Below, one piece after another: positions 1,333-62,405 of a DNA stretch of 64,000 nucleotides. Below the pieces are notes generated by a model. It made no database searches and had not been told where the DNA came from. It was given only the letters and a program-made list of their open reading frames with translations. The number at the start of each line of letters is the position of its first letter. Position 1 is the stretch's first letter. Position numbers and translations under genes: made by a program. The DNA comes from Octopus vulgaris (taxonomy: Eukaryota). The DNA lies in contig OX597814.1 of assembly GCA_951406725.2 (NCBI GenBank), forward strand, positions 140,120,001 through 140,184,000. Reading direction: 5' to 3'.

Positions 1333-2058
1333 CATTATATATATGCATTTAACTAGCAATTTCTATACCAAATAGTTGCTTCATCAGTATTGGACTGGTG
1401 AGATGAAGAATTAATCAATTAATTAACAAATCATTTAAAATAAATCAAGCTCAGTAGTTGATAGCTCTGAGTTTGAAACCTGTTATTGTTAATTCAATTT
1501 CTCCTGTACCTGCTAAGATAACTGGGTTAAAGTTATCCATGTTAAAACTGTTTATCAATTTCATCTTTTTACCTTCTCTATCAGTTTGTCTCTTTTCAAA
1601 ATCTCTTGTCTCCTTTCAAAGGTTCTAGTCATTTAGGAATTATTAACTAGATATATATCAGTGAGTATTTATAAGACATCAAAATACCTGTATCATGATA
1701 TGTTTCAGGAATGCATTATTAGATCAGAATCATCTTGGTTTCACTTTCACTGGTGAATTATTTATTGCTAAACTCACTTTTCAATTCCTAACATCTGTTT
1801 AGTGATGGAAAAGTTGTTAACAACATAAGAATACTGCAAGATGGTATCAGGTGACATAGTTGTGATTTTTTTAAAGATATTAAAACTTCCTTGTTTGAAT
1901 GCTGCTGAAAGCAACTTAGTGAAAATAGTAGTTTGTTTTGCAAAATTCCATTTTTTTTTTTTTTGTCTTTTTAAACAAATCTTTTCTATGTTTGTATTTC
2001 TAACAGAATACACCATTAATGTTAATTTTTGAAATAATCAAAAGTTTTGAGAGAATTT

Positions 2059-2269
2059 CACCTTTTAGCATTCAGACTGGCCATATCCGGCCAAAATATT
2101 CTACCTGTTTTATGTTCAAACTGACCAGATCTGACCTTTGCCATCTAACCTTAAAATAAACAAGCACATCATCAAAATCTCAAAGCTTAGAGATAATGAA
2201 TGATTGATTCAAAACAATGTGAATAAATAAGCCTTAAATTAGACAGTAATCTGAATACTAAAGGTTTAA
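2059..2269. mobile_element. piggyBac-like (TTAA-CCCT) MITE, degraded
   Basis: ccttttagcattcaga ... tctgaatactaaaggtttaa termini. Same family as 12089-12295, 25534-26357, 45862-46146 and 53507-53707. Confidence 0.65.
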
Positions 2270-2549
2270 TAAAATAACTTCTCCATTATTAACTCCTTAA
2301 TTTCCTGTATGACATGAATCTTCCCGACAGCATATGTGTCTTTCAGTTTTGTACTCATGTTTATATTCATTTTAAAATATGTTATAAACTCTCTAATTTA
2401 AGTGTGAAAACTTTAATCTCTTCCACTCTTATTTATTTACATTCTGTAATGTTTTCTATTAAAATCAAGGCACATAATGCTTAATTTTTGCAGTTTATTT
2501 TTCTGTGTTTATTTTGTGCAAACCTGGTTATGCTATGTTTAAAGGGAGT

Positions 2550-2820
2550 AATAATGGGAAACTACCATCTCTTGTGAAAGGTAGGAGAGTCCAGTTTGCT
2601 GGACATTGTTGTAGAGCTGAAAAAGAGGTAATTTCTACTCTTCTCCTCTGGAAGCCATCTACTCGCAATACCAGAGGGTGCACACTCTCCTACCCTGATG
2701 TAATCTCCAGGGATACAGGCATCCAGCAACAGGACCTCCGTAATGCCATGATGGACCGTGAAGTCTGGCATAGCATGATAAATTCCATTGTCTCGACCAC
2801 AGTCGAACAATGATGATAAA
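2550..2820 (+). mobile_element. 3' end of an RTE-like LINE (5'-truncated)
   Basis: Encodes RRVQFAGHCCRAEKE...LLLWKPS...SYPDVISRDTG...AMMDREVW, a typical RTE ORF C-terminus, followed by a (TGA)n tail. Confidence 0.75.
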
Positions 2821-3225
2821 TAATGAAAAAGGTGCAAAAAGGACATGGGAATTTTTTTTTAAGCCTGTGATGTTTGTGTATTCAAGACTGTTATTAATTA
2901 CATTTAATTCATTAGTAACTTGTTTCTTTTCTCTTTTTATAGTACATCTATTATTAATTATTATTATTTAATTCACAAACATACATGCAAAACATTATTT
3001 TTAACACAAAGAAAGACATTAGTCTGTTGTGCAAAACGACCAATTTTCCCAATAACCTGAGTAGGGTTATGACATTATGACATTTAACCAAAAATGTCCA
3101 TTTTTAGGTATTTTCTGTCCACTCTTTACTAGATTGAGCTTTTGATTTTGAAAATTTTCAGCAGAATGTTAAAAATTAAGTTGGTGCTTGGAGAATAACT
3201 TAGCAAAATATTCTTACACATAATA

Positions 3226-3387
3226 GGTGCAGGAGTGGCTGTGTGGTAAGTAGCTTGCTTACTAACCACATGGTTCCAGGTTCAGTCCCACTGCATGGCA
3301 CCTTGGGCAAGTGTCTTATACTATAGCCTCAGGCCGACCAAAGCCTTGTGAGTGGATTTGGTAGACGGAAACTGAAAGAAGTTCGTC

Positions 3388-3437
<50 letters not shown>

Positions 3438-3608
3438 GTATATGCTTGTGTGTGAGTGTGTTTGTCTTCGATGCTGGTGTGTTTACGTCCCCATCACTTA
3501 GCGGTTCAGCAAGAGAGACTGATAGAATAAATACTAGGCTTACAAAGAATAAGTCGTGGGGTCGACTTGCTTGACTAAAGGTGGTGACTGAAACAAGTAA
3601 AAGAATAA
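3226..3608 (+). mobile_element. Full-length tRNA-derived SINE with internal (TA)n/(TG)n
   Basis: A box TGGCTGTGTGG, B box GGTTCAGTCCC, core CACCTTGGGCAAGTG, tail GACTGAAACAAGTAAAAGAATAA. Several copies occur in the window. Confidence 0.85.
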
Positions 3609-3862
3609 TTATAATAGAATATTTAAATTTAAATAAAAACGCATTAAAATGGTTTTGTTTCATAAAACTAAGGGGTTTTTTCAGCTAGGTCACACTCTTC
3701 CTCTTTCTATAGGCATGAAAAATTATTATAAAATGACACTTTCTCTTTTATATATTTCATTAGTAAAACATATGATATTTAATTATCACTTTCATTTTAT
3801 AAATCATAAAATTTCAAAAATTCTATATATTCCTTATGTTATTTTTGTTTTACTATCTGCAG

Positions 3863-15200: not shown

Positions 15201-16816
15201 GAAACAAAAGAAAAATGTATTTGGTTTTGTGTGTGTGTCTGTGTTGTATATATGTGTGTGTATGTATGTATATATATGTGTGTGTGTGTGTGTGTCTGAG
15301 TACATATATGTGATGCATATATATATGTGAGTGTGTATTAACTCACTAGTCCTGTCCCTATTGTTATATACACACCATATTCAAAATGAATAAGCATAGG
15401 ATCATAATCTAAATGTATTTCACAACTGTTATGTCTATCATAAGAAAATGATTGCCATTGGATATGTTCATAAAAACTCTTCATTCTCTTACATCTTCTT
15501 GTTGATGTCATTTGTATTCTTCTATTAATGCCATCAAATGTTGTTGAGATTCTTTATGAATATCTTCAAATGCTGATTGTGTTTCACTTATATAAGCAGC
15601 TTATCAAACATACTTTACTTCTTACTAATAAAGAAAGAAAAGAAAAGAAACACTTCTACAGCCAGTCTACCTTTTTCTTTTTTCTTCTTTACAATTTACA
15701 ACAGCTACCATTCATTTACAAGTTTTCATTTGCAATCATTTATATTTCCTCTTTGTCTTTCAGCTCAATTGTATCCTCTCTTCTTTTTAGCTCTCTTTCT
15801 TTCACCTGATTAGTTATTATTTGGAACATAATGCTTAGAAGTGTAATTAGTTGTTTTGACTTAAATGGTTTAAATAACATTTGTATCCTAAATTACAATT
15901 AAACATGTACGTATGTCATATCAGAGCCCTGAAGCTTGGAATATTGATTGCATTAATTAGCAAACAAATTCTAAAATGATTTTATTCAGTATGTATATAT
16001 ATTTACCAGCTTGCTTGTGTGTATTTGCGTACCTTGTGTATGAGTGAGTGAATGTGTGTATGTTGTAAACATTTTCATTTGATAAAACAGATCCATGCAA
16101 GCGCATATGATGACCACAACATCAAGGGGTTGTGAGAAACTGCCAGTATCATTGTCCCAGTAAGGTCATATAAAATCACTCGCATGTGTATACAAGCACA
16201 AATGCTTAAGTTTGATGTGATCTTTCTTATGACAAAATTTGTTTTCATCGAGAAATATCATTGTTATAGCAAAGACATCATTAATTTAACTGTCTGCAGC
16301 CAACCTTGTTGATTTTGTGTGAAAGCCTACAATGTCACTTCTGCTTGTGTTTGGAATTAAATTTTTTTTTCTCCATGGCTACTAGAGAAGAATTTAAAGG
16401 ATTTTTTTGTTTGTTTACTTTTTTTCTTTTCCTTTGCAAGAATTGTCAGCAAAATTTTAAGCCAGAGCATCTATAGTCAACAAAAGACAAAAACAAGAAT
16501 CACAATACTGGTTTCAAAACAGTTTTCAGTGTTTACAAACATTAACAAAGCCTATCAAATATTTTATTTATTTATTATTTTTGTGAACCAAAAAGCAAAA
16601 AAAAAAAAAAAAAGCTCTTCATCAGCCATCTTTTTCAGTCCATTTTCTTTCAATACGTCATATCATGGCTTCTCTCATTCTCCAGCCAGGAAGCTCTCCA
16701 ATCTGGAGATCCAAATTTTGCTGCATATTGCTGTCTTTCTTCACAATTTGTGATCAAGTGTAAACTTCAACACGTGATCCTACTCTACGATTTCCAGCAT
16801 GCACCACCTCCTTGAA

Positions 16817-16831
16817 ATGAGAACTTTATGG
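16817..16831 (+). CDS. Candidate alternative first coding exon (isoform b) of the SLC4 anion exchanger, MRTLW; 5' UTR probably extends upstream
   Basis: gaaATG AGA ACT TTA TGG|GTGAGT: purine at -3 and a consensus donor in phase 0 matching the acceptor at 40470. The preceding sequence is non-repetitive and less AT-rich. Confidence 0.4.
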
Positions 16832-26357: not shown

Positions 26358-28764
26358 AATGAAAGAATGGTCACAACTAGACTTAGTAAGAAAAAGTATA
26401 TATATAAAATTTCCAAAATATTAATGTAGACACAGGAATTTTAAAATAGGAATGTTTGGAAATATTATGGTATCAGTAATATAACAATTATTCGTTTTAT
26501 GGACAAAATTTTAAAATTAATGGTATCAAGAGAAATGTTTCGTTCTCTTAATTTTAATTAAACAAGCTTATATTAAACTATAATACAATAAAACCAGATA
26601 TTCCCAAAGGCTGATTGATAAAGGTAAATAAAACTGCTATAGAACTGCTTTATTGCTCTTGTAGAAACTTTGGCAAACATGAACAGTTTTAGTATTTTGC
26701 TGATTGCTTTACTAGAAGTGCATAAAAGAAAAATAAATTATCCCTCCTCTCTTACCATAACAGAATTTTTTTCTCGACAGTAACTGCTGTGAATTTGCCT
26801 TTAAATGTGTAACAAACATATTTTAGTTAAACTAAAGTTCATCTCCCCTAGTTATTTCAAGAAAAAAAAAAGGGTGGAAAACACAAGGTGTACAGTATTT
26901 TTTATATAGTTTATGAAGATATTTCATTTGTTTTTCTCCAATCTTGTACATAACTTATTATTGTTATTGTTATTATTAATTGTAATAATAATAATATCAT
27001 TATTATTAATATTATTATTATCATTAGAAAATTTTAGAATTTTCATAGTATATCAAAATTTCTATACACTGGTCTTTTCTCTTTTCATAGACTTATCTAA
27101 TTCTTTCATACTGTGTTCTAAATTCTTTTTTCTTCCAATGCATTCCACTGGAACTTCATTCTTTTAATATTTTCCTGCCATAAACTAATCTTAAACTGTT
27201 TTAAAATTAACAGCTGTGGCCTAATTAATTTATTCTTATGATTTGGCATGGTTTTCTATGGAAGGGAATACAGCCGTAGAAAACCCTGCCAAATCAGACT
27301 GGAGTCTGGTGCAGCCTTCCAGCTTACCAGTCCTGGTCAAACCGTCCATCCCATGCCAGCATGGACAACAGACATTAAATAATGATGATGATCCATAATA
27401 GAAGAGCCTAAAAAAGTATAAAGATTCTATTCTTCAACTGCTGACAAGAAAACCGTGGTTTATAAACATATTCTATCTATTACTTATTTCATAACTTTAT
27501 TTTATAGTTCTTTCCATTTTTCCTGAAATTATGTCACAGTTTACAGAAAAAAATCTGAATAATCATCTAAAATTGTTTTTGCTATCATCAACTTTGTCCT
27601 CTTGTATTAAAATCAGTCAATATCTCTTCAAAATTCATTTGCGAATGTTGTAGATTGCCAAATCATCTGAGATTCTAATCCTGAGTTTTCAAGAGTTAAG
27701 TACCACTGCCTAAACATGTGCAATTACTGAAATTAAAATGTCATGTCCAATAAACTTTTACTAAAATTATTCTCATTGCTTTCTTTTTCTGAGTATTTTG
27801 ACGAACCTTTATTTTACATCAATCTAAAGATTCACATATGACTTTAGTGAATTTTGTAAACTTCATGCCATGTCTTCAAATTTAAATCTTCTTTTATTGA
27901 AATATCCTTTTTGAGAACAGTTTGCTTTTTAAGGGGGGATTTAAATTGAATATTTGTATCAGCATTTCATCAATTGTTGTTTTCTCAAATGATTTTGTTC
28001 ATTTTAATATGAAATTCAACATTTTAGCAGGCTCTGATTAATGAAAAATGTTATGGGAGTACTATTTAATTAAACTCTTGTTAAATTCAACCATCAGAAA
28101 ATCAAAACTTTTTCAATTTTTTATATTTATTTTTATTATTCATCACAAATATCATTTTTCAAAACTTTACCCAGAAAACTGCTTGAAAATATATTGCACA
28201 AAAACTACCAATATTTACTATAAATTTTAAGAAATTACTGTATGAATTACTGGTAATTTGATAATATCTCTCTACTTATCTTTTCTTTCTTACCCTTTTT
28301 TTATATTTCTAAAGTTGGTTTTGGAAATAGTTTGTAATTGTAAAACATTAGCCACTCTTCTTACTAGATTTAATTATAGTATTTTCTTTAAGCAATATGA
28401 ATAATTTTTAACGATCCAAATAAATTTTTTTTAATAGTGATTTTAACATCACAAACAGGATTAACAACATCAGCAGTACAAGTTAACTAAGGAATTGCTA
28501 TTTACTTATAAAACCTTATTTCGAAAAATTTAGCTACGCTTTTAACATGTTTATTGCATATTTTACCTCGTAGATTTTAGTTCAGTAAACTGCTTTAAAG
28601 ATTAAAATGACTAAGTCTTTGAATGTCATCTTCACACAATAAAAGGTAATAGTTACAACAGAAAATTCAGTCATTTGGTCTGTAAAGTAGGTGTACTTAT
28701 GCAGAACTAACTATGGTTATTTGACAAGAATATTGATTTCTAACATTGTTTAACAAGAATACTA

Positions 28765-29045
28765 TCGTTGCCAGTGCCGCCTGACTGGCTCCCATGCTGG
28801 TGGCACATAAAAAGCACCATTCAAGCATGGCCAATGCCAGTACTGCCTGACTGGCCCTCTTGCCAGTGGCACATAAAAAACACCCACTACACTCTCAGAG
28901 TGATTGGTGTTAGGAAGGGCATCCACTATAGAAACCATGCCAGATCAGATTGGAGCCTGGTACAGCCTTCTGACTTGCCAATCCTCAGTCAAACTGCCCA
29001 ATCCATGCCGGTATGGAAAGCGGACATTAAATGATGATGTTGATA
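28765..29045 (+). mobile_element. RTE-related (GAT)n-tailed SINE with internal tandem units
   Basis: Two units of gccagt..ctgactggc..tggcacataaaa, then ggaagggcatcc ... ggaaagcggacattaaatgatgat. Near-identical to 62090-62405. Confidence 0.8.
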
Positions 29046-36495: not shown

Positions 36496-36527
36496 TCTCT
36501 CTCTCTCTCACTCACTCACACACTCTC

Positions 36528-36618
<91 letters not shown>
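36496..36618. repeat. Compound (CT)n/(TA)n microsatellite
   Basis: Read directly from the sequence. Confidence 0.95.
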
Positions 36619-36622
<4 letters not shown>

Positions 36623-36624
36623 AA

Positions 36625-38146: not shown

Positions 38147-39044
38147 AGGAATGTTCATTCTAAACTGCCAAAAGGACCTCTGGGACAAGTTGTCAGTCAA
38201 ACAACTACTATAGTACTAATACAGTGTGAGTTATGAATAAATAAGTTGGGTGAATGTTCATTCTAAGCTGCCAAACAGAACCTTGGAGCCTGATTTCACA
38301 AGGAGACTAAATATGCAAAGATGTGATTTCATATATTATTTAATCATTTTTAACACAAACAAAACTCTTCTGAGTTTGATTATTCCTTATTGTTTCAGAT
38401 CAGCACAAAAAACTAAGTAAAATCTCGCCTTCACCATTCTTTATTTTCTCTTAGTTGAACTGATTCTCACCAAACGATATATTCAAACCTTTATTTCTTG
38501 TCTGATAATCTTATTAGTTTATATCACAATCAATGAAAATTGCCTAGTATTGATTACCATTACTGATTTATAATTTGATTTATTTTTCTTGCCCTTGGTT
38601 CTGGAAATAAACTTCGTTATGTGTTTATATCAAAATTGGAGTAGTATGTTTGTATTGAATGATATTTTCTTCTCTAATTAAACATTATCTTCCCATTGAA
38701 ATATGTTGGCTTCATTTCACTGTCTTCAATTTCATTTTCTTTGAATATCAGAAACCTAAACAGTTTGATAAATTGATAATAATGCACCAAGCCATATTTC
38801 TCTTAATTTATACTAGATTAAGAAATTCAATAAAGAAGCCACTAGTATACAGTTTATGTCATAAAAATCTCTGTTTGCCATTTATATTCTTACTCTACTC
38901 TCCATTTCTCAAATCTCTGATATCATTTGAATGAATTGGCATTTATTTTCTTCCATTTTTAATTGTTTCGTTTTTTTTACATAATCTTGCTGATGCCATT
39001 GTCATCAGTTAGTCCTTCTCTCTCTCTCTCTCACACACACACAC

Positions 39045-39090
<46 letters not shown>

Positions 39091-39099
<9 letters not shown>

Positions 39100-39525
39100 T
39101 AAAAAGAATTCCAACCTTGTCTGATTTTCACGTTTTATTTACAATCTTATAATGATATATTATAAGATAATATATTATAATTGAATAAAATAAAATGAAA
39201 TAGTAGAATGTTAAATATTCATTCTGATTGAACTAGTACTTTCATGCATTGAATTCTGCAATCTTCGGGTTCATGTAGTAGTGTTGACAGTCATGCTTCA
39301 CAATTTTTAAAAATTGTGAAGCATGACTGTCAACACTACTACATGAACCCGAAGATTGCAGAATTCAATGCATGAAAGTACTAGTTCAATCAGAATGAAT
39401 ATTTAACATTCTACTATTTCATTTTATTTTATTCAATTATAATATATTATCTTATAATATATCATTATAAGATTGTAAATAAAACGTGAAAATCAGACAA
39501 GGTTGGAATTCTTTTATTAATATAT
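39091..39525. repeat. Near-perfect loopless palindrome with ~217-bp arms, between (TA)n tracts
   Basis: Centre caattttt|aaaaattg at 39308/39309. By eye the arms are identical except for one A/T-run indel near the outer end. (TA)n at 39064-39095 and ~39553-39598. Confidence 0.97.
39344..39388 (+). ncRNA. Putative minimal type-I hammerhead ribozyme, U4C core variant (mirror copy on minus 39229-39273)
   Basis: TGAAC-CCGAAGA-t-TGCA(gaattcaa)TGCA-t-GAAA-gtac-T-A-GTTCA: 5-bp stem I, 4-bp stem II, palindromic AGTACT stem III, UA cleavage site. Confidence 0.6.
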
Positions 39526-39549
39526 TCTTCTATACACAATCACACACAC

Positions 39550-39605
<56 letters not shown>

Positions 39606-40469: not shown

Positions 40470-40785
40470 GATGAAATGGAGGATGGCTGCCTCAAAGTTG
40501 GTCTCGGTAGCCATCCCGAGTCAACTCTGTCTGACACAGCCCTCAATGAGACTCCAGGGGTAGGTTCTTCTAAGGAAAACCCAGTAAACCAGGAAGAAGT
40601 GGAATTGCAACCACTAATCTCCCATATTTCTGCAATGGACCGAGGTGCTTGTATGGGCCATATCTCCACACTGCATGATGAGGTGGAAAAAATATTTGAA
40701 ACTCCTCCACGATTCAACATTGATTCTTTATCAACGGGAGAAGTCTGTCAGGATCAGCACCGGTTTGGAGAGGATGATTATAAAA
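40470..40785 (+). CDS. SLC4A2: SLC4 anion exchanger (AE2/AE3-like) exon, N-terminal region DEMEDG...HRFGEDDYK
   Basis: ttacag acceptor; gtatga donor in phase 1. Joins the next exon to give DDYKNHRRMSFPHVHHPL, which resembles the AE2 DFEYHRQSSHHIHHPL motif. Confidence 0.85.
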
Positions 40786-41011
40786 GTATGATAATATAAT
40801 TTTAATGCTCTGACATTTTATCATCATGATCTATCTTTTACTTTTGTGTTATGCAGATCCACACTTGACTCTGTAGCAACATGTTCTCTGTCAATTATGT
40901 TTTCTTTAGTTAACATTTTAATTCTTAGTAATCACTACAACTAACTGTTACTAATCCCAAATATCTGCTAATCAGTTTTCTTCACTTAAAATTGTATGTG
41001 TGTGTGAAATG

Positions 41012-41395
41012 AGGTAAAGGTATGGCTGTGGGGCTAAGAAGTTCACTTTCGAGCCTCATGGTTTTGGGTCCAATCTCACTGCGTGATACCTTGGGTAAGT
41101 TTCTTTTGCTATAAACCACCAAAGCCTTGTGGTAGACAGAAATTGAAAGAAGCCCATTATGTATGTGTGCATGTGTCTTGACATCACATGTTGTAAGCAA
41201 GTGTCACTATCTAAGAAACAATATGATTCATTTCCAATCTTCTGTGAAAACATGCCCTGCCAAGGGGAAATCCTACCTTGCTTGGAAATAAGTAAGGGTT
41301 GGTGACAGGAAGGGCATTTGATCATAGAAAATCTGCCTCAACATATTTTATCTGATCCATGCAAGCATGAAAAAGTGATCATTAGAACAGTGACA
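41012..41395 (+). mobile_element. tRNA-derived SINE, variant with an RTE-like tail
   Basis: Same head/core as 3226 (accttgggtaagt). Tail ggtgacaggaagggcat ... catgcaagcatgaaaaagtg. Confidence 0.75.
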
Positions 41396-42390: not shown

Positions 42391-42770
42391 CACCATCATT
42401 TTAATGCCTACTTTTCCATGCATGGATCATAGAAAATTCATTGATGCAAATTTTCCATGGTCAGATACACTACTTGTTGCCAACCCTCATTTACATCCAA
42501 GCAAGGTAATATTTCCCGTGACAGGACATGTTTTCATGGGAGATTAGAAACAAATAACACTATTTACAACTATTACATGATGTCAAGACAAAGAGCTACA
42601 CACTCACACACACACATGCACACACACTCACACACACACACGTATGACTGAATTATTTCAGTTGCTGTCTACCAAACCCACTCACAAGGCTTTGGTTGAC
42701 TTGGTGCTATAGTAGAAGACACTTGCTTGAGGTGCCATGCAGTGGGACTGAACCTGAAATCATGTGGTCT
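42391..42770 (-). mobile_element. tRNA-derived SINE, variant with an RTE-like tail (inverted relative to 41012-41395)
   Basis: catcattttaatgcctacttttccatgcatgg ... gacacttgcttgaggtgccatgcagtgggactgaacc. Confidence 0.75.
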
Positions 42771-62089: not shown

Positions 62090-62405
62090 ATTTGGCACAG
62101 AAAAAGCACTATTCGAACATGGTCGTTGCCAGTGCTGCCTGACTGGCTCTTGTGCCAGTGGCACGTAAAAAGCACCATTCGAGCGTGGTTGATGCCAGTA
62201 CTGCGTGACTGGCCCTCGTGCTGGTGGCACATAAAAAGCACCCAGTACACTCTCAGAGTGGTTAGCATTAGGAAAGGCATCCAGCAGTAGAAACTTTGCC
62301 AGATCGGAGTGGAGCCTGGTGCAGCCTTCTGACTTGCCAATCCTCAGTCAAATACCGTCCAACCCATGACAGCATGGAAAGCAGACGTTAAACGATGATA
62401 ATGAT
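62090..62405 (+). mobile_element. RTE-related (GAT)n-tailed SINE with internal tandem units
   Basis: Near-identical to 28765-29045; ends gcatggaaagcagacgttaaacgatgat. Confidence 0.8.

Follow-up and report, generated by a model that had tools for sequence, protein, structure and literature searches.

The question raised by this locus is how a loopless and nearly perfect palindrome came to lie within a gene of Octopus vulgaris, and how its two arms came to be almost identical. The window, namely the whole 64-kb stretch of DNA that was analysed, had been described in an initial annotation as carrying a near-perfect palindrome of about 435 bp with a single indel and (TA)n on both sides, and exact-arm alignment confirmed this description along with the proposed centre at 39308/39309 (Table 1).

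An intronic palindrome and its hammerhead motifs

The exactly inverted arms (39102-39308 and 39309-39515) are 207 bp long, 100% identical and devoid of any spacer. An extra A at 39101, which gives a run of five rather than four Ts when read outward, is followed by 10 further paired bases that extend the palindrome to 435 bp, with full arms of 218 bp (left) and 217 bp (right), no loop and one extra base. In the rest of the window the longest perfect palindromes are (TA)n tracts of at most 23 bp. The left arm, whose T run is the longer one, starts at position +5 of the element unit described below and ends in its first AT tract, where it is fused with the target (TA)n. In the right arm the unit's first four bases are missing, as are the CCAAT- and TATA-like motifs upstream, and this arm is the only one extended by a 26-nt element-derived tail, a feature that the initial annotation had left unmentioned. 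Both ends of the insert merge with (TA)n, which is where target-site duplication was checked; the initial repeats of the right (AT)n can derive from the element, in whose unit an (AT) tract follows the tail, with the remainder belonging to the target. The junction has 7 nt less than the commonest centre of the family, and this loopless form is found at two genomic places, the second being on C28 with unrelated flanks. Elsewhere in the window, a (CT)n(TA)n tract at 36496-36623 resembles the occupied site with the insertion absent, and a 66-bp tandem repeat of 2.3 copies at 62093-62242 has similar translated text at 28744-29031.

Table 1. Features of the insertion and of the flanking host exons, in window coordinates
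Feature	Position	Strand	Basis
First coding exon, host SLC4 (AE2-like) gene model	16799..16831	+	protein mapping
Left target microsatellite, (TA)n following (CT)n/(CA)n	39064..39096	.	repeat scan
Left arm, tail-less pLTR copy running leftward	39091..39308	-	
Hammerhead-shaped motif, left arm	39229..39273	-	
Head-to-head junction, centre 39308/39309	39302..39315	.	
Right arm, pLTR copy, sense relative to the host gene	39309..39525	+	
Minimal type I hammerhead motif, right arm	39344..39388	+	
26-nt element tail, right arm only	39526..39551	+	
Right (AT)n	39552..39598	.	
Second coding exon, host SLC4 gene model	40470..40787	+	protein mapping

The downstream exon shows a 99% match to the anion exchange protein 2-like protein of Octopus vulgaris, which maps in order onto the two exons of Table 1 and onward, and Band_3_cyto matches a later exon of the same gene. 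Since these SLC4/AE2-like coding exons flank it, the palindrome is intronic (intron 1), and the proposed position about 950 nt upstream of the exon at 40470 is borne out by the exon mapping, which places the acceptor 945 nt away.

Each arm carries an outward-pointing hammerhead, as had been claimed, which we confirm as a motif on either strand. In the right arm, stem I is formed by 39344-39348 and 39384-39388, the core (39349-39355) has C at position 4, stem II is formed by 39357-39360 and 39369-39372, GAAA lies at 39374-39377, helix III is palindromic and the predicted cut falls after 39383. The lowest-energy fold of the motif comprises stems I and II (-5.3 kcal/mol), and pairing of two RNAs through the helix III palindrome is predicted at -6.8 kcal/mol. 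The Rfam search yielded no hammerhead match at gathering scores and none among the 31 hits at E<=10; its miRNA hits on the palindrome are below gathering scores and reflect the mirror hairpin shape only. A pattern search of the genome gave 102 hammerhead matches against 45 in the control, many of which are thus due to chance, and the comparison between families accordingly used only the paired-stem cases among the 30 read. In related families of the same genome, double, compensatory changes preserve the pairing of both stem I and stem II. Homologues of the arm are moreover abundant. Core position 4 is C in the youngest subfamily and T (U) in 23 older arms. At least two other hammerhead-like families (L120, L122, L121 and L131) have the same palindromic helix III.

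In the available text of Cervera and de la Pena 2014 (PMC4209133), the minimal type I hammerheads of metazoan Penelope-like elements (PLEs) are likewise described as having a short helix I, one additional base ahead of helix II and a palindromic helix III; the version studied here differs from them in the C at core position 4 of the youngest subfamily, a helix II of 4 bp and the lack of an Rfam match. The same text reports that minimal PLE hammerheads are weakly active and need dimers, and that Schistosoma has hammerheads paired on opposite strands at distances of 100-700 bp.

Once transcribed as part of the host pre-mRNA, the insert would fold into a duplex of about 215 bp, switching off the ribozyme fold. 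The sequestering of the ribozyme envisaged by the initial annotation is supported as a prediction, as folding gives the full hairpin 215 pairs and -333 kcal/mol, against -5.3 kcal/mol for the ribozyme fold. Most likely the insertion is a passenger, either neutral or slightly deleterious. In the next intron, a pair of diverged inverted repeats (41216-41363 and 42419-42565; 74-78%) about 1.1 kb apart might also form dsRNA.

The parent element and its young family

The arms match the end of an element encoding a reverse transcriptase (RT) and a GIY-YIG endonuclease, which supports the earlier suggestion of an inverted duplication of a PLE terminal repeat. The palindrome is almost certainly an inverted pair of PLE pseudo-LTRs (pLTRs); on sequence grounds, it is a promoterless head-to-head pLTR pair of a young PLE within a (TA)n tract. 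As in PLEs bearing an endonuclease (EN+), the pLTR contains a hammerhead motif, with core and stems I and II, and the parent unit of 4,271 bp occurs in tandem, the units being identical in L104. Head-to-tail arrays with three hammerhead copies spaced at exactly 4,271 bp were also observed on C1 (27841091-27849669, 38876586-38885164) and at other places. These arrays, taken together with the identical L104 units, point to probable multi-unit templates.

A 775-aa frame in L038 contains the RT and the C-terminal GIY-YIG domain expected of an EN+ PLE, with RVT_1 at E 2.9e-6 (27.6 bits, below the cut-off of 29.6) and GIY-YIG at E 2.7e-5 (24.8 bits, above the cut-off of 22.6). The RT has YLDD and DKG motifs, the protein has 699 homologues, and a CCHH motif of the endonuclease was recognized by eye, its two Cys lying between the GIY and YIG parts and its two His downstream. 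A CX4CxxC linker lies at residue 653, ahead of GIY-YIG, and is present in 114/114 homologues with a readable GIY-YIG, of 120 in all. Because a CX2-5CxxC linker is the criterion given in the available text of Craig 2021 (PMC8557442), its presence places the parent element, as a candidate member, with Neptune/Nematis and not with Penelope/Poseidon, an assignment by the linker motif alone, which does not tell Neptune and Nematis apart. By that source, the linker before GIY-YIG, the CCHH and DKG motifs and the (TA)n target are all alike in these clades, and the Penelope/Poseidon clade, defined by absence of the linker, was rejected. A MITE or foldback DNA transposon was likewise rejected, as the ends differ by the tail, single-arm copies are abundant and the arm corresponds to the end of an RT element; so was a non-LTR retrozyme with short head-to-tail hammerhead units, the copies here being head-to-head.

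Upstream of the arm, the element shows CCAAT-like boxes, a TATA-like motif and, about 32 nt on, an initiator-like site (all by eye). Many short single copies start at this last site, which suggests that it may be the RNA 5' end. The L104 unit has two ORFs (218-1579 and 1489-3813) overlapping in the -1 frame, as also seen in L038, and the overlap contains a U-rich heptamer of slippery type that is unchanged in 16/16 copies read; a programmed frameshift between them is likely. The upstream ORF and the -1 overlap are additional to the EN+ PLEs of the printed descriptions available, although the Fig. 1 legend of Craig 2021 (PMC8557442) allows for ORF1 being frameshifted in certain types of PLE.

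A DNA search of the same genome with the arm gave 45 full-length matches at 99-100% among the 56 listed, and a 37-nt core gave 1,122 exact genomic matches against none in the control. At least 87 loci, including that of the window, have a short palindrome centred at the same site of the element; details come from the 50 short loci listed among these 87 and from the 100 core matches listed among the 1,122, and in most of the 50 the centre spans 7 nt, one base of which is unpaired. Alignment of arms from 47 loci (7/54 having been left out) showed that over about 200 columns the arms of the window equal both arms of at least 15 other loci. As these loci are unlinked, the identity of the arms is explained by their youth, and of the "very recent origin or arm-to-arm conversion" put forward earlier the recent origin stands, while there is no need to invoke conversion. 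Nor can the single indel be read as a measure of elapsed time, since the same T5/T4 difference recurs in 8/47 palindromes, that of the window included. Among other loci, L022 and L023 (C5, 62 kb apart) are a near-duplicate insertion with a common right flank, and L023, which has many small errors, is possibly an assembly duplicate; L095 has two inverted insertions side by side within 3.3 kb, with one tail each.

One tail per insertion and a proposed route of integration

The asymmetry in tails seen in the window proved to be a strict rule of the family. All 47 short loci with both ends intact (of 55 read, 8 being left out because an arm was cut off or too diverged) have one tailed and one tail-less arm. 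One tail was also found in 25/25 classifiable further inverted pairs (by eye; L044 left out) and in the inverted insertion L136. Exactly one tail is thus present in 73/73 inverted insertions with both ends readable, in keeping with the inverted copies of EN+ PLEs, and two exact tails were found in 0/72 loci of the genome-wide centre lists, which have no locus in common. Both insertion ends sit at element AT tracts that merge with the target (TA)n. Single-arm copies on C1 whose 5' end is seen use either end, 19 having the tail and 9 lacking it (by eye; L142, L163 and L172 are omitted as unclassified and L158, L167 and L173 because their 5' end is out of view); an independent choice of ends is therefore excluded for 73/73 (about 5e-27). 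In a sister family that is older and has another hammerhead, the sole locus read (L113:1280-1650) is a head-to-head pair of the same pattern, with the tail on one arm only.

The available texts of Craig 2021 (PMC8557442) and Arkhipova 2013 (PMC3846280) describe EN+ PLE insertions with several comparable traits, namely tandem units, pLTRs, a head-to-head inverted copy, a tail that is often one-ended, AT-rich or (TA)n targets, as well as a GIY-YIG at the C terminus. Compared to these printed cases, the insertion in the octopus consists of pLTRs only, is loopless and has a tail of 26 nt rather than 30-40, and its family obeys a strict one-tail rule at a copy number that permits statistics. The former source calls the origin of PLE tandem and inverted structures "undefined", while noting the inverted pLTR and the often one-ended tail. 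In the portion available of Frangieh 2024 (PMC11167929), Anolis Poseidon is reported to cut and extend both target strands in vitro, from two RT start sites that bound the tail, with uncleaved RNA as main template and hammerhead cleavage dispensable; the inverted copy is not explained there. AT-rich targets and tail-bounding starts, putative in the octopus, are common to both systems; in the Anolis element the RT starts are not target-homologous, whereas those of the octopus lie in AU tracts matching (TA)n, a difference that weighs against the pairing step proposed below. In the O. vulgaris repeat annotation of PMC13282606, 31 Penelope-like families are given as recently active, its available text offering no structural detail, and the parts available of PMC6431247 and bioRxiv 10.64898/2026.07.22.740005 add little further information. 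A double-priming account for PLEs was not found in the openly accessible literature searched.

We consider it probable that a single insertion event produced both arms, each being a separate cDNA copy of element RNA. The more specific proposal, to which we assign about an even chance, is that PLEs integrate by double priming, both primers annealing to one RNA at the AU tracts on either side of its tail, with end joining of the cDNAs. The GIY-YIG nuclease would cut both strands of the self-complementary (TA)n, yielding two like 3' ends, one of which would pair with the AU tract preceding the tail and the second with the tract that follows, in most cases on the same RNA. Both would then be reverse-transcribed toward the RNA 5' end, which, as judged from the DNA, would be the point just behind the TATA-like and initiator-like motifs where the centres cluster; the rear cDNA would displace the front one and run through an uncut hammerhead. 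The 3' ends of the cDNAs would be joined via microhomology, with 7 nt lost at the locus of the window, and loss of one cDNA would leave a single-arm copy, either tailed or tail-less. Where the cDNA ends have equal sequence, they would pair with a central T-T mismatch, and repair in either direction would give a mixed centre base.

A comparable process is twin priming in L1, in which both target strands prime on one RNA and the cDNAs are joined by microhomology. There the second primer is internal and an inversion without duplication results, whereas the octopus primers would be separated by about 30 nt and produce a duplication in mirror image.

Double priming and its rivals

Of the rivals the strongest, though on balance unlikely, is snap-back, in which the tail-primed cDNA would fold on its own 3' end and be copied back to the first AT tract, which would join the other target end, with later centre flips and deletions blurring the pattern. 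It is in print for palindromic junctions of PLEs (Arkhipova 2013, PMC3846280, in the text available), and it accounts for the single tail. The two differ over the centre base. Genome-wide, with the tail placed on the right, 29 loci have T and 43 have A at this position (p=0.12 against 50:50); the lean to A is in the direction that snap-back predicts and counts against double priming, but snap-back allows only A, so that 29/72 loci carry a forbidden base. Were the centres flipped gradually after snap-back, young copies should be more skewed, whereas T:A is 15:19 in young and 14:24 in older ones (by eye; Fisher p=0.63), the forbidden base being no rarer in the young. The tail-less single-arm copies further show that the first AT tract starts on its own.

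The tail-less arm often reaches deeper into the element than the tailed one (L096-L098, L102, L103, L139, L174, L040 and L002), for which snap-back would require additional deletions. Junctions show overlaps of 1-11 nt in 20/25 cases, or else inserts copied from nearby sequence, both of which are marks of microhomology end joining. Asymmetric centres can also be produced by later deletion within a palindrome, and such deletion, centre flipping or ectopic conversion could mimic the other marks of double priming. Between arms, family polymorphisms make up 14/75 substitutions where 2.7 are expected, an excess that speaks against snap-back, although discordant polymorphisms can arise from ectopic conversion or recurrent mutation. 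Conversely, 17 private variants in 8 loci are common to both arms, which suits one template, conversion and also snap-back. Six long inverted pairs (L012, L018, L031, L037, L047 and L101) have near-symmetric internal centres, within 14 nt, which count against double priming, as they suit snap-back or else need a broken RNA common to both RTs. Double priming is nevertheless favoured because of the one-tail rule, the mixed centre, the asymmetric junctions and the polymorphism excess, together with the findings in the available part of Frangieh 2024 (PMC11167929).

A protein dimer with one element RNA for each target strand, whose asymmetry would set the starts before and after the tail, is improbable. 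The arms of L062, L063, L067, L089 and L092 do differ at family-polymorphic sites, a dimer is predicted for the anole protein in the text available from PMC11167929, and the helix III palindrome could, by the predicted energy, pair the two RNAs. Yet both arms are nearly always of one subfamily, the near-symmetric internal centres require a common RNA end, and a symmetric dimer offers no ready cause for a strict one-tail rule. It is very improbable that perfection was kept by arm-to-arm conversion or by host selection for an intronic editing or small-RNA hairpin: the SLC4 intron site, the very stable predicted hairpin and the both-arm private variants of some older loci would fit, but arms that equal the young family sequence at unlinked loci have no locus-specific history to preserve, and the locus is one among at least 87 alike.

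Contigs, rather than reads spanning both flanks, were examined as to the assembly: those of four runs break at the left microsatellite, covering none of 39014-39081, and at the palindrome centre there are three from X1, the possible source, and none from X2, X6 and X4, which does not prove absence. The sole contig over the centre passes it by 11 bases, below the bridging standard, in a run that may be of the source sample, and a fold-back or assembly artefact is still the least probable reading of all, considering that the flanks differ with exon order intact on both sides, the tail is confined to one arm, the many other loci vary in their centres and, as far as they were read, have unrelated flanks, and the same junction recurs at the unrelated C28 site.

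Taken alone, the locus is a young PLE insertion of an ordinary sort, whose inverted pLTR structure is already in print. The family is of greater value than the locus, as its over a thousand near-identical copies yield countable rules that separate insertion models, namely one tail, a mixed centre base and asymmetric junctions, and that point to a clear in vitro test. If true, double priming would by itself account for the tail, for the inverted pLTR and for the bias of PLEs toward microsatellites, and would be recorded in hundreds of young insertions. Octopus is known for heavy RNA editing, and the family spreads long perfect hairpins across its genome, from which dsRNA and fragile sites may arise and would be worth looking for.
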